A DNA stretch of 64,000 bases from Escherichia coli. GTDB taxonomy: Bacteria; Pseudomonadota; Gammaproteobacteria; Enterobacterales; Enterobacteriaceae. The translations under genes were made by a program, and so were the position numbers. Positions 1 to 28,694 of the stretch are shown here, piece by piece. The stretch lies in NCBI RefSeq assembly GCF_022846255.1, contig NZ_AP025682.1, one strand, 5' to 3'. The notes under the pieces were generated by a model. The model did not search any database. It was not told where the DNA came from and was given only the letters and a program-made list of their open reading frames with translations. How positions within the stretch are numbered: the stretch's first letter is position 1; each line of letters opens with the position of its first letter.

Positions 1-335
1 CCACTAAATAATTAGCTAGAACAATAAGAATAATTTTGGGCAGTAAAGACAGGATGTAAACTACACTTATTCCAGTATGTTGGTTATCGTAGTTATATAT
101 GATGAGCTCTAAAGTCCGCTTCTCGCTCATAACAGACATTCACTACAGTTATAGTAGAAGGTATGCATGCTGAGTGGGGAAAGTGTGAAAGAAAAGAAGA
201 CTGCTGCGTCGTTTGTCGTCACGTTTATCTTCATTGGTTATGCAAGTAGTAATACAAGATGGGACAAAACTGAGGCACACATAGCTTTGTACTGGATTGC
301 TAGGCTTTGTGCTCTTCGATAGTGGTTAAGGTGGA

Positions 336-1493
336 TCACTCCACCTTTTCATCAATCCAGTCCGCCCACCATTGCATCATTTCTCTGCGTTTATCGAGAT
401 ACTGAGCATGGTTGTAAATCCCACGCACAGATCCGCCGTTGGCATGTGCCAGTTGCACTTCAATAGCGTCAGCAGGCCATTCGTGCTCGTTCATAATTGT
501 GCTGAATTCATGCCTGAATCCGTGACCGCTTTCCAGACCCTCATAGCCGATTTGTTTGATCACAAGCAATACCGCGTTCTCGCAGATTGGCTTCTTCTTA
601 TCGTTGCGCCCGGCAAAAACAAACTCTGATACTGGTTTAGTGATGGAGCTTAGCGTAGTGAGAAGTTCAACCACCTGGTCTGACATAGGAACAACATGAA
701 TCTTGCGGCCCTTCATCACACTGGCGTCGATAGTGATAATCCTGTTTTCAAAATCGACGTTCTTCCATTGCATGGAGCGAAGCTCTTTCGTTCTTAGGGC
801 TGTGTAGCGTAAAACTTTGGTCGCAATGAGCGATATGATGCTTCCTGAAAATGTTGCCAGTGCTTTGTTGAATGCAGGGATCTGGTCTGCTGGGAGAAAC
901 GGGAAGTTCTTCTTGCGGTATCCCTTCATGGCGTCAGCAAGGTCAGGTGCCGGGTTATATTTAGCCCTACCAGTGACAATAGCGTAACGGAAAACCTCGC
1001 CGCATCTTCTGCGGGCTTTGTTGGCTCGCTCCATTGCACCGCGATCTTCAAATCTGCGGATTACTTCCAGCAGTTGCATCGGCTCAATATCCTGAATTTC
1101 AAGGCCGCCGATGATAGGTAAAATGTCGTCATCAAACATTTTTGCAAGTTCAGTTGCATAGCCTACTGACCAGACTTGCTTCTTGTGCTCGTACCATTCC
1201 TTGTAAATCGCACTAAAGGAATTGTTGTTAGACGAAGCCTTTTTCGCTTTTACCGGATCGATGCCAACCGAGATGTCTTTCCTCGCGGTCCATGCTTTAT
1301 CTCTTGCCTCCTGCAAAGTCATTAGCGGATATTTTCCTACGGTCAGGATTTTCTCCTTACCGTCAATCTTGTAGCGAAGCTGCCATACCTTTTTCCCTGA
1401 CACAGGGACATAAAGGTACAGGCCATTACCATCGAGTAGGCGGTATGGTTTTTCTTTCGGCTTTGCTGCTTCAATCTGCTTAACGGTGAGCAT
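336..1493 (-). CDS. intS: Prophage integrase IntS (tyrosine recombinase, P4-like)
   Basis: ORF-track frame 336..1529; translation MLTVKQIEAAKPKEKPYRLLDGNGLYLYVP... has an integrase N-terminus and a catalytic C-terminal domain. Start placed at ATG 1493 (385 aa); an upstream in-frame GTG at 1529 is possible. Confidence 0.9.
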   Translation of the reverse strand: MLTVKQIEAAKPKEKPYRLLDGNGLYLYVPVSGKKVWQLRYKIDGKEKILTVGKYPLMTLQEARDKAWTARKDISVGIDPVKAKKASSNNNSFSAIYKEWYEHKKQVWSVGYATELAKMFDDDILPIIGGLEIQDIEPMQLLEVIRRFEDRGAMERANKARRRCGEVFRYAIVTGRAKYNPAPDLADAMKGYRKKNFPFLPADQIPAFNKALATFSGSIISLIATKVLRYTALRTKELRSMQWKNVDFENRIITIDASVMKGRKIHVVPMSDQVVELLTTLSSITKPVSEFVFAGRNDKKKPICENAVLLVIKQIGYEGLESGHGFRHEFSTIMNEHEWPADAIEVQLAHANGGSVRGIYNHAQYLDKRREMMQWWADWIDEKVE

Positions 1494-1654
1494 GGGTAAA
1501 AATCCGGTGGGTAAAATTATTTTATCCACTTTTTACCCGTCATGGAGTGCGGCTGTCAACGATCTGACGCGAACCATTACGAACTGTGAATCTACGGAAG
1601 GCTTGATATTCAGGGGATTTTGCGGACTGGTACGGATGGGAGCGAACTGATAAA

Positions 1655-1729
1655 TGGTGTCCCCTGCAGGAATCGAACCTGCAATTAGCCCTTAGGAGGG
1701 GCTCGTTATATCCATTTAACTAAGAGGAC
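1655..1729 (-). tRNA. argW: tRNA-Arg (anticodon CCU)
   Basis: 75-nt sequence whose reverse complement reads GTCCTCTTAGTTAAATGGATATAACGAGCCCCTCCTAAGGGCTAATTGCAGGTTCGATTCCTGCAGGGGACACCA: cloverleaf-compatible, CCT anticodon, encoded CCA end. Confidence 0.85.
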
Positions 1730-1804
1730 AATGCGGCATGAGTATACCCGCTAATGGACTACGGAGTAAGTACACAGCCGCTCGATTGCTTAAACCCTCG
1801 CCAT

Positions 1805-2737
1805 TTATGCCGGGTTTTTATCATTTTTCTTAATGTTTTCCGCACGTTCTGCTTTTTGGCGTGCTTCTGCTTTGCGCTTGTTGCTCATGTCGTTACGAAT
1901 CTGTGCATGACTCATTAACGCGAAGATAAAGGTGCCGCCGCAGATGTTCCCCGCTAAAGTAGGTAGTGCGAAGGGCCAGATGAAATCGCTCCAGTGCAGC
2001 GTACCGTTAAACACCAGATAGAGGATTTCTACAGAACCGACAACGATGTGGGTGGTGTCACCCAGGGCAATAAGCCAGGTCATCAATATAATCACCACAA
2101 TCTTTGCCGCACCCGCTGCAGGAAACATCCATACCATAGTGGCGATCAGCCAGCCGGAAATGATCGCGTTGGCAAACATCTCGCTGGGGGTGTTCTTCAT
2201 CACATCCATGCCGATTTTGACAAATGCATCGCGAGTTTCTTCATTGAAGATTGGCATATATTCAAATGCCCACGCCGCAATACCTGTCCCGAGAATATTA
2301 CCCAGCAGCACGACGCCCCATAACCGCATAAGTAAGCCAACGTTGCTCATTGTCGGTTTTTGCATGACGGGTAGTACCGCAGTCACGGTGTTTTCGGTAA
2401 ATAATTGCTGGCGGGCCATAATGACGATAATAAAACCAAAGGTATAACCGAGATTCTCCAGCAAGAAGCTGCCCGGCACACCTTCCAGTTCGACATGAAA
2501 TATCCCTTTTGCCAGTAATGAAGCGCCCATCGACAGGCCCGCCGCAATGGCTGACCACAGTAGCGCCATTGCGTCGCGTTCCAGCTCTTTTTCACCATCC
2601 TGGCGGATATGCTCATGAATTGCCATCGCCCGGGAGGGGAGTCGGTCTTCATCTATTTCTATTTTTTTGCCGCGCTCTTTTTCTTCGCTCTCAACTTCAA
2701 TTTCGTCGCTGTGTTGATCAATTTTGTCGTTGTCCAT
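1805..2737 (-). CDS. yfdC: Inner membrane protein YfdC, formate/nitrite transporter (FNT) family
   Basis: 310-aa ORF with multiple hydrophobic helices; recognised as YfdC from sequence and position next to argW. Confidence 0.9.
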   Translation of the reverse strand: MDNDKIDQHSDEIEVESEEKERGKKIEIDEDRLPSRAMAIHEHIRQDGEKELERDAMALLWSAIAAGLSMGASLLAKGIFHVELEGVPGSFLLENLGYTFGFIIVIMARQQLFTENTVTAVLPVMQKPTMSNVGLLMRLWGVVLLGNILGTGIAAWAFEYMPIFNEETRDAFVKIGMDVMKNTPSEMFANAIISGWLIATMVWMFPAAGAAKIVVIILMTWLIALGDTTHIVVGSVEILYLVFNGTLHWSDFIWPFALPTLAGNICGGTFIFALMSHAQIRNDMSNKRKAEARQKAERAENIKKNDKNPA

Positions 2738-3030
2738 GGTCTCTTCTCTTGAATTAGCACGTATAGCTAAAGCGTAGCGGCTTTTTTGCTCGCAACTGGC
2801 GGGAGTTACTCTGAAAATGTAGAAAAGGCCGCGTTTGCCTTTTTCTGTTTCTATAGAATCAAGTAGCCTACAGGGCGGCGATTACCAGGCTATGATCAAA
2901 TCAGCAAATCAGGGCGTCTGGACATCAGTTGACGTGCTGTTACAATCGCCCACACCTAAACAGGCGGATACGGTATCGTTCCGTCATGGATGGCAAACTG
3001 CATAAGCCATAAAAAAACAGGGAGACATTT

Positions 3031-3786: not shown

Positions 3787-3791
3787 GAAAC

Positions 3792-3824
3792 AAAAAAGGT
3801 GAGTCGCAAAACTCACCTTTTTTC
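3792..3824. terminator. Bidirectional intrinsic terminator between convergent mlaA and fadL
   Basis: Stem AGGTGAGT / ACTCACCT with loop CGCAAA, flanked by an A-run upstream and a T-run downstream, so it works on both strands. Confidence 0.65.
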
Positions 3825-3843
3825 TTATTAAGCTAACGCGTTA

Positions 3844-5184
3844 TCAGAACGCGTAGTTAAAGTTAGTACCGAACAGCCAGGCTTTACCTTCAGACTCGAA
3901 CTGATATGGGCCTTCGTTAATTTTCACGCTCTGACCGTGCATATAAGAAACACCAACGTCGACTGAAGCGTCTTTATTAAATGCGTAAGTCGTACCTGCA
4001 CTCAGCCAGAAACGGTCCTGGTCCGGAATGGAGATAGAACGATTCTGTGCCGGAACTGGGCTGTCATCAAAGGCGATACCGGTACGGAAGGTCCAGTTAT
4101 CATCGTAGTAATAAGTGGTACCCAACGCGATGCGGTAAGCATCTTTAAAGCCTTCATGTTTCTGGAACAGCGTGTCGCCACTCGTTGAGGTCGCTTTCAG
4201 CTGCTGGAACTGACTCCAGCTGGTGTAAGCCAGGCTATAGTGAATTGCCCACTGCGGAGCAACACGGTTATAACCCGACACTTCCCACATTTCAGGCAGG
4301 TTCAGCGTCAGATAACCTGACTGCGTTGCGCCACCTGTCGCGGTAGGAATTGGCAAACCGTAGTTATTAAAAGCCGGGTTAAGATCGCTGCTGTAGTTAC
4401 CCTTGAAGTCAATTTTCACTTCAGAGCGGTAGGTCAATGCGTAGCGGTTGTTTTTATCCAGTTCATACAGGATACCGGCGTTCCAGCCAAAGCCCCACTG
4501 GTTACCGTTCAGGTGAGCGATTTTGGTATTACTGTCGATGCCGTTGGCGGTAGCTGCTAATGCTTGCCCCTGAGGAGTCAGCCAAGCAGGAGATTGCCTA
4601 ATCTGACCAGCCACCAGTTGCCCCAGATCGCCTGCGAAACGTTCAATTTTCGCGCGAGCGTAGACGGCGTTGAAACCAAGACCAAAGCTCCATGCATTAT
4701 TTAAGCGATATGCACCGCTTAAGTTCAGGTTCATGGTTTCGAGGTCGGTGGTACCACCGACAGAACCGCCTGCATAAGTATCGTTAAACTCTGTCGCCAG
4801 ACCATAGTTAGAGGTAATTGAAGCCCCCCAACCAAATTGGTCGTTAATCGGTGCAACAAAGTGCATGTTCGGAACCCATGCCGTAGGCGCGATGTTATCG
4901 GCTTTCAGGCTACGACCAGACGGAGACGTTCCGCTGATATTTACATCCGGATCAATATAAACCGCACCCGCAGAAAATGTCGGGCGGTCAAACATGGTAA
5001 TCAATGCGGGGTTACGGCTAACGTTACCTGCATCATCGGCAATTGCACCTTCCCCTGAATAAGCCCGGCCCAGGCCAGAGGAAGAAAATTCGTTTAACTG
5101 AAAGCCTGCCGACCAGGCCTGGGTGGAGATAAGTGCCACTGCGACTGCGAGAGCAGACTTTGTAAACAGGGTTTTCTGGCTCAT
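3844..5184 (-). CDS. fadL: Long-chain fatty acid outer membrane transporter FadL
   Basis: ORF-track frame 3844..5190; start trimmed to the third codon ([27 protein letters not shown] signal peptide); ends in the aromatic beta-barrel terminus ...NFNYAF. Confidence 0.93.
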
Positions 5185-6020: not shown

Positions 6021-7331
6021 ATGGGTCAGGTTTTACCGCTGGTTACCCGCCAGGGCGATCGTATCGCCATTGTTAGCGGTTTACGTACGCCTTTTGCCCG
6101 ACAGGCGACGGCTTTTCATGGCATTCCCGCGGTTGATTTAGGGAAGATGGTGGTAGGCGAACTGCTGGCACGCACCGAGATCCCCGCTGAAGTGATTGAA
6201 CAACTGGTCTTCGGTCAGGTCGTTCAGATGCCTGAAGCCCCCAACATTGCGCGTGAAATTGTTCTCGGTACTGGAATGAATGTGCATACCGATGCTTACA
6301 GCGTTAGCCGCGCTTGCGCTACCAGTTTCCAGGCGGTTGCAAACGTCGCAGAAAGCCTGATGGCGGGAACTATTCGAGCGGGGATTGCCGGTGGGGCAGA
6401 TTCCTCTTCCGTATTGCCAATTGGCGTCAGTAAAAAACTGGCGCGCGTACTGGTTGATGTCAACAAAGCCCGCACAATGAGCCAGCGCCTGAAACTTTTT
6501 TCTCGCTTACGTTTGCGTGACTTAATGCCGGTGCCTCCGGCAGTGGCGGAATACTCCACTGGATTACGGATGGGGGACACCGCAGAGCAAATGGCGAAAA
6601 CCTACGGCATCACCCGAGAACAGCAAGATGCACTGGCGCACCGTTCGCATCAGCGTGCCGCTCAGGCGTGGTCAGAAGGTAAACTCAAAGAAGAGGTGAT
6701 GACTGCCTTTATCCCCCCTTATAAACAACCGCTTGTCGAAGACAACAATATTCGCGGTAATTCCTCTCTTGCTGATTACGCAAAGCTGCGCCCGGCGTTT
6801 GATCGTAAACACGGGACGGTAACGGCGGCGAACAGTACGCCGCTGACCGATGGCGCGGCAGCGGTGATCCTGATGACTGAATCCCGGGCGAAAGAATTAG
6901 GGCTGGTACCGCTGGGGTATCTGCGCAGCTACGCATTTACTGCGATAGATGTCTGGCAGGACATGTTGCTCGGTCCAGCCTGGTCAACACCGCTGGCGCT
7001 GGAACGTGCCGGATTGACGATGGGCGATCTGACATTGATCGATATGCACGAAGCCTTTGCCGCCCAGACGCTGGCCAATATTCAGTTGCTGGGTAGCGAA
7101 CGTTTTGCTCGCGACGTACTGGGGCGTGCACATGCCACTGGCGAAGTGGACGAGAGCAAATTTAACGTGCTTGGCGGTTCGATTGCTTATGGGCATCCCT
7201 TCGCAGCGACCGGCGCGCGGATGATTACCCAGACATTGCATGAACTTCGCCGTCGTGGCGGTGGATTTGGTTTAGTGACCGCCTGTGCTGCGGGTGGGCT
7301 TGGCGCAGCAATGGTTCTGGAGGCGGAATAA
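6021..7331 (+). CDS. fadI: 3-ketoacyl-CoA thiolase FadI (anaerobic beta-oxidation)
   Basis: 436-aa ORF with thiolase family signatures, including the C-terminal ...[13 protein letters not shown]. Confidence 0.95.

Positions 7332-26520: not shown

Positions 26521-28694
<2,174 letters not shown>

Follow-up and report, generated by a model that had tools for sequence, protein, structure and literature searches.

The integrase-proximal end of an argW-inserted element in Escherichia coli joins an IntS module, a lambda sib/tI-like module and the end of a cargo cassette

The argW gene is a classical integration hotspot, and the layout in which argW and intS lie side by side is well known, so that the tRNA–integrase junction considered here brings nothing new in itself. 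The question raised by the present locus is rather what kind of element begins at this junction and what it carries. The DNA analysed, referred to as the window, is a stretch of 64,000 nucleotides from an E. coli contig (NZ_AP025682.1), and the region of interest comprises its first 1,729 positions. A preliminary description of the same DNA had placed the left end of the window inside an argW-integrated island, the cargo of which would lie wholly outside the window. The first part of this description stands, on the evidence of an attL site and an alignment with an empty site; the second does not, because positions 1-125 are the end of a cargo cassette. The locus is useful chiefly as a correct signpost that accessory DNA begins at the left edge of the window, and a modest added value lies in its composite int-proximal end.

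The tRNA gene, argW, occupies positions 1655-1729 on the minus strand and was identified as tRNA-Arg(CCU) by ARAGORN (anticodon CCT) and by the Rfam tRNA model (63.4 bits). ARAGORN finds this tRNA-Arg as the sole tRNA of the 64-kb window, and a tRNA-Arg is likewise the neighbour of yfdC in annotated E. coli genomes. The yfdC gene (1805-2737, minus strand) encodes a member of the formate/nitrite transporter family (PF01226, E=1.1e-48) and is annotated under this name in E. coli. It is the first chromosomal gene across the tRNA from the island and lies outside it; the chromosome to the right of the tRNA contains yfdC, mlaA, fadL and fadIJ.

On the opposite side of the tRNA, intS (336-1493, minus strand) encodes an intact tyrosine integrase of the argW-specific IntS/HK620/Sf6/CUS-3 group, as assigned from its Pfam domains and protein identity. 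The open reading frame extends over 336-1529 on the minus strand; the start was taken as the ATG at 1493, as in annotated genomes, which gives a protein of 385 residues. Its domains follow the order Arm-DNA-bind_3, Phage_int_M/SAM-like and Phage_integrase, with matches to PF13356 (N-terminal arm-DNA-binding, E=2.3e-25), PF22022 (central SAM-like, E=6.1e-28) and PF00589 (E=3.4e-39, profile positions 2-170 of 172). The motifs ALRTKELR, KGRKIHVVP, HGFRHEF, LAHANG and GIYNH are legible in the translation, and catalysis is predicted from the R-K-H-R-H-Y catalytic domain of tyrosine recombinases, which is recognizable in IntS. The protein is identical to K-12 IntS at 382 of 385 residues and to HK620 Int at 379 of 385, it is matched by PDB entry 2kj8 (‘putative prophage CPS-53 integrase’, E=1.1e-70), and 535 blocks of public assemblies index exactly the same sequence. 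A P4-like satellite found at argW elsewhere, which comes with Psu, Ogr/Delta and primase genes, has an integrase that is 30% identical to IntS over its full length (E=2e-60), and the architecture of IntS, as judged from its sequence, is of the P4 type. The gap between the int start and the 3' end of the tRNA measures 161 bp (1494-1654), the same as the argW-intS gap in K-12. The earlier statement that a P4-type tyrosine integrase lies about 160 bp from the 3' end of tRNA-Arg(CCU), on the same strand, is thus borne out. We infer that IntS is still active.

The space between intS and the tRNA contains the P' arm of attL together with the integrase promoter region (1494-1653, minus strand), all within a match to phage HK620 of 96.6% identity. 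Two annotated features of HK620 map to this segment, the repeats of the attP arm and the promoter labelled ‘prophage excision’, and a sigma-70-like site is found at 1543-1516 on the minus strand. The segment is followed by the 16-bp attL core (1654-1669, minus strand; CTGCAGGGGACACCAT on the tRNA strand), which overlaps the argW 3' end. It was located by an att alignment composed of the attB of an E. coli strain with an empty site (L034), the HK620 attP, the window and both ends of CPS-53 from K-12. The core is identical in attB (L034), attP (HK620, annotated), attL (the window and K-12) and attR (K-12 pawZ), while its flanks switch between the four sites exactly as the textbook predicts. In the 64-kb window the core, CTGCAGGGGACACCA, has a single occurrence, with 0 expected in shuffles. 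The annotated 16-bp attP core of HK620 corresponds to 1654-1669, and phage matches stop at base 1669. Since the core stands between the tRNA and the phage P' arm, the site in the window is an attL. In the strain with unoccupied argW, dsdC-dsdXA adjoins the tRNA in place of the island; this sequence is 99.2% identical to the window, but the alignment begins only at base 1653 and runs rightwards, and positions 1-1652 are therefore inserted DNA.

Positions 1-1669 would be the attL end, on the integrase side, of an element that derives from a temperate phage. IntS would have placed this element in the 3' end of argW by recombining a phage attP site-specifically with the 16-bp core that the tRNA gene contains. 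This reading as a whole is very probably correct. The order away from the tRNA would be the att core, the P' arm with the int promoter, intS, a terminator module resembling lambda sib/tI, a 24-bp site and the end of a cargo cassette. By analogy with K-12, the element probably continues to the left as far as an attR copy of the core beside dsdC, and would carry a TorI-like excisionase there.

The intS-argW-yfdC arrangement is present in 1684 of 5426 complete E. coli genomes (~31%), counting those in which at least 80% of window 1-3000 is covered. The cargo that follows an identical IntS consists of P22-like prophage genes in some cases, of ompT and a hydrolase in others, or of a 384-residue protein and a caspase. 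Occupants of argW elsewhere include P22-like prophages (K1 endosialidase types among them), the P4-like satellite with its different integrase, ompT-bearing remnants and large LPD-domain proteins. The expectation that island cargo at argW is strain-variable therefore holds, with at least three unrelated cargos behind an identical IntS in other genomes.

It is quite possible, at a little under an even chance, that the element is a short decayed remnant, made up of a solitary integrase and a few morons, which has neither attR nor phage genes and has lost the ability to excise. CPS-53 of K-12 provides a precedent at the same site, as a cryptic remnant of 10 kb in which intS is just as intact, and the two islands closest to the window in the segment downstream of int (L005 and L012) contain IS fragments and tail-fibre gene remnants beyond their cassettes. 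Against this, there is no sign of decay within the window, where intS has its full length and neither the attL core nor the P' arm is damaged. The exact IntS protein is also widespread, and complete-looking P22-like prophages with the same IntS exist in other genomes (L004, L028-L033).

The first 335 bp are AT-rich, as had been noted before, with a GC content of 39.1% versus 51.5% for the whole window. This AT-rich start consists of two parts, the cassette end at 1-125 and a lambdoid module at 138-335; GC content is 31.6% over 1-114, 43.0% over 115-335 and 47.6% in intS. The module (138-335, minus strand) is a conserved non-coding segment downstream of intS and is designated a sib/tI homologue on the basis of its homology to lambda, with a tI-like inverted repeat at about 275-313. 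Over 232 aligned columns, window 87-313 shows 77% identity with the stretch of lambda (27295-27510) that closes the b region on its right, and lambda 27479-27510, which contains the sib/tI inverted repeat, aligns with window 275-313. A 171-bp portion (138-308) is 79-94% identical to sequences located close to the termini of 26 lambdoid viral contigs and is also found at prophage borders in about 2000 E. coli genomes, while window 115-340 is 99.1% identical to the IntS islands L005 and L012. In HK620 the terminator for the excision transcript is annotated at the position equivalent to this module. The hairpin formed by 255-340 on the minus strand (-11.7 kcal/mol, z = -0.21) folds no better than shuffles, and what is proposed here is for this reason homology to sib/tI and not its function. 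A small RNA within 1-335 was considered as well and rejected, a search of Rfam at E<=1 returning tRNA only.

The likeness to lambda includes the 77% identity, the inverted repeat and a 24-bp site at lambda 27322-27345. The arrangement, however, is different. The lambda attP lies between int and sib, and integration separates the two (retroregulation), whereas here the module sits directly behind intS and attP is upstream of int. Neither the core search nor the att alignment gives an att site between intS and the sib-like element. With attP upstream of int and none between intS and sib, the lambda-style retroregulation switch cannot apply.

To the left of the sib/tI-like module, positions 1-113 (plus strand) form the 3' flank of a mobile cassette of ~1.9 kb, recognized by its identity to the right end of that cassette. 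Window 1-125 is identical at 125 of 125 positions to the cassette end in two P2-like prophages (L037 and L015) and in a genomic island (L047), and at 124 of 125 to that in a Salmonella IncFIB plasmid (CP053577). The cassette occurs in four unrelated contexts with 98-99.5% identity. In P2-like prophages it is located between the tail-fibre-assembly gene G and the sheath gene FI; the remaining contexts are the Salmonella IncFIB plasmid, a genomic island beside a SduA_C (Shedu-like) gene, and another chromosomal locus. In the known loci the cassette contains a gene for a protein of 479 residues (L037 10001-11440, L016 14434-15873, L047 7055-8494), and ~130 bp separate the end of this gene from the position that corresponds to window base 1. 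By analogy, a complete cassette with this gene, a putative hydrolase, would lie immediately to the left of the window, on the plus strand and convergent with intS, the sole basis for the gene in the source genome being its last 125 flanking bases. At one further locus (L048) the cassette flank is present and the 479-residue gene is disrupted. In the island L047 the gene adjoins a SduA_C (Shedu-like) cassette. An ENA contig of 1418 bp (L014) shows the 3' flank between inverted ends of an IS110-family element, which could reflect either a palindromic assembly artefact or insertion of an IS at the site.

An open reading frame at 2-130 on the minus strand (MSEKRTLELIIYNYDNQ..., MSEKRTLEL...) runs off the left end of the window and is probably spurious; it lies antisense in the AT-rich 3' flank of the cassette. 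It belongs to a six-member cluster of predicted proteins of 59-83 residues, none of which is named, and it starts exactly at the 24-bp site.

The 479-residue protein itself reaches the threshold for no entry of Pfam, PADLOC, PHROGs or NCBIfam, and the 384-residue cassette protein is without a match in PADLOC, PHROGs and NCBIfam. There are ~1900 relatives of the 479-residue protein at E<=0.001, and members of the family match Hydrolase_4, Abhydrolase_6, DUF676 and Tle3. The residues that are invariant across the family alignment include H109-G110, S177 within an HSHG motif, D299 and H451; of these S177, D299 and H451 are read from the alignment as a putative serine hydrolase catalytic triad. 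A confident AlphaFold (AF2) model was obtained, with a pLDDT of 90.8 and a pTM of 0.88. In this model the N-terminal region and the connections between core strands contain long helices, which are read as probable transmembrane segments wrapped round an α/β-hydrolase core. Comparison of structures with the PDB gives weak matches to thioesterases, esterases and lipases (best E=7e-4, with TM-scores on the query of 0.17-0.24). Our best guess is that the protein is a membrane-embedded serine esterase or lipase that would serve in lysogenic conversion or exclusion. A role as the transposase of its own cassette was ruled out, as the protein is a membrane α/β-hydrolase.

The cassette and the sib/tI-like module meet at a 24-bp boundary site (114-137), GTCCGCTTCTC-GC-TCATAACAGAC, which has inverted arms of 7 bp around a centre of 10 bp. 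The consensus of such sites is GTCYGCT-N4-GC-N4-AGCRGAC. The site in the window scores 15/16 on the rule derived for them, and it is the only one present, the remainder of the 64-kb window containing zero sites that score >=14/16; in shuffled lambda DNA, 0.055 sites per 9 kb would be expected at a score >=13. Its left half belongs to the cassette and its right half to the module downstream of int. In every context the cassette has one site at each end, with a GTGCCA centre upstream of the gene and a TCGCTCA centre downstream. Across the four contexts of the 479-residue cassette the cassette-side half-site is constant and the context-side half-site is variable. The boundary that abuts the cassette end in the window is of the TCGCTCA type expected on the right-hand side, which places it with the sites of the P2 Z/fun type. 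From this pattern a GTGCCA-type left site is predicted by analogy ~1.9 kb to the left of base 137, with a sequence of about G[GAT]CTGCTATGT-GC-CAATAGCAGAC; the predicted form of an emptied site is GTCCGCTNTGT-GC-TCAWAGCAGAC.

The same pair of sites flanks fun(Z) of phage P2 (NC_001895, 15335-15358 and ~17.43 kb). Among 52 P2-like contigs that share the right flank, up to 31 distinct cassette ends are found, either singly or in arrays of two or three. The 26 lambdoid contigs that share the right half-site and flank of the window have up to 13 distinct cassette ends, and their partner sites of the GTGCCA type lie 1-4.5 kb upstream. In L005 and L012, the IntS islands nearest to the window, there are two cassettes, which encode the 384-residue protein and a caspase-like protease. 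Sites are located at 6791, 8687, 9970, 10012 and 10855 in L047 and at 11357, 12772, 12812 and 16358 in L005. Lambda itself (J02459) has one orphan site (27322-27345); a partner was looked for in the b region and none was found.

The cassette-site phenomenon is already described: according to a review (PMC8987985), Nilsson et al. (2004) proposed site-specific recombination at inverted repeats flanking fun. A 2026 preprint (10.64898/2026.02.27.708500) states that the recombination processes by which defence loci of P2 and P4 are swapped still need elucidation. With the P2 Z/fun cassettes, as the review presents them, the present case shares both site types, which flank fun(Z) and also the 479-residue cassette between G and FI; it is unlike them in that the cassette here lies behind an integrase in an argW island and not between tail genes. 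An analogy may also be drawn with integron cassettes (attI/attC), which are likewise promoter-poor units of a single or a few genes with short imperfect inverted repeats, are inserted singly or in tandem at fixed platforms, and recur as the same cassette in unrelated replicons. The 24-bp sites, in contrast, have no similarity to the R'/R'' cores of attC, and there is no adjacent IntI-like integrase.

We infer that the cassette in the window arrived by recombination at the 24-bp site. There is about an even chance that this site represents a second platform, at the int/sib-proximal end of lambdoid and IntS prophages, of a little-studied cassette-exchange system that also operates at P2 Z/fun, on plasmids and in islands by means of a trans-acting recombinase. 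As part of the same proposal, the units exchanged would comprise the membrane hydrolase, the Shedu-like SduA_C protein, the caspase-like protease and fun(Z). The two flavours of site, GTGCCA and TCGCTC, could act as heterospecific swapping sites, or crossover could take place at the central GC that they share; the data fit either. The former would resemble recombinase-mediated cassette exchange with heterospecific sites, which is cited as an analogy only.

It is unlikely that the repeat at 114-137 is instead a chance palindrome or terminator-like hairpin, with the junction produced by illegitimate or homologous recombination. Such an explanation would suit the arms of the repeat, which match each other imperfectly and fail to fold as DNA (-0.3 kcal/mol, z = 0.51), as well as the lack of any recombinase linked to the site and the cassette arrays with mixed site arrangements, which one simple mechanism does not explain. 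It is opposed by the observation that the same cassette ends exactly at such sites in all four of its unrelated contexts, and by the many different cassette ends, up to 31 and up to 13, that abut the site in P2-like and lambdoid contigs. The constancy of the cassette-side halves beside variable context-side halves, the rarity of the site both in the window and in shuffled lambda DNA, and the proposal of Nilsson et al. cited above also argue against it.

The junction in the window brings together an IntS module, a sib module of the lambda kind and a cassette that is known elsewhere from P2-like phages, from a Salmonella plasmid and from an island of the defence type. Composite in this way, it provides a clean natural case of a cassette moving at a defined 24-bp site. 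The exact junction is absent from the 5426 complete E. coli genomes, where megablast and blastn searches with 1-340 and 1-250 gave no record covering >=80%, and from the GTDB representatives and JGI metagenomes, which were searched with exact junction patterns. Look-ups of exact proteins (IntS, YfdC, FadL and the 479-residue protein) returned related loci and never the junction of the window.

The preliminary description had also pointed out that K-12 carries CPS-53 at argW, and this is indeed seen, with the same spacing between tRNA and integrase; torI and the other copy of the core (pawZ) lie at the distal end of CPS-53. CPS-53/KpLE1 and the present island have in common the attachment site, the 161-bp spacing, the 16-bp core and an IntS identical at 382 of 385 residues. 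The comparison with CPS-53 that had been suggested nevertheless separates the two islands, for K-12 homology covers window 258-1800 only, ends 78 bp past the intS stop and is gone to the left of base 258. K-12 goes on with yfdG/yfdH/yfdI (gtrABS), which the window does not contain; window 1-257 matches other sequences, and an identity with CPS-53 is refuted for the int-proximal cargo. That the island is CPS-53/KpLE1 itself, as the shared site and spacing and the 99.2% identity of IntS might suggest, is extremely improbable in view of the lambdoid sib-like module and cassette end that follow intS where K-12 has yfdG/yfdH/yfdI.

The int-attP module of the P22-like phages HK620, Sf6 and CUS-3, which is also used by the Stx phage VT2phi_272, is closely related to that of the window: across intS and the P' arm the nucleotide sequences are 96-97.5% identical, and the attP core is the same. 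The annotated HK620 promoter and terminator map to the corresponding places in the window. Matches to these phages begin between window 250 and 343. Past the terminator HK620, Sf6 and CUS-3 continue with genes of their own (tailspike side), whereas the window has the sib-like module and the cassette.

The chromosomal part of the window shows a core identity of ~99.2-99.3% with the best complete E. coli genomes, a value low enough to indicate that the source lineage is thinly represented among complete RefSeq genomes. Its backbone is 98.8-99.2% identical to genomes with the same FadL allele. Between mlaA and fadL (window 3787-3843) yfdF is missing, which is present there in K-12 and many other strains. 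The 3' part of fadL (3835-4640) is ~77-80% identical to that of some E. coli lineages and matches the genomes that share the FadL allele.
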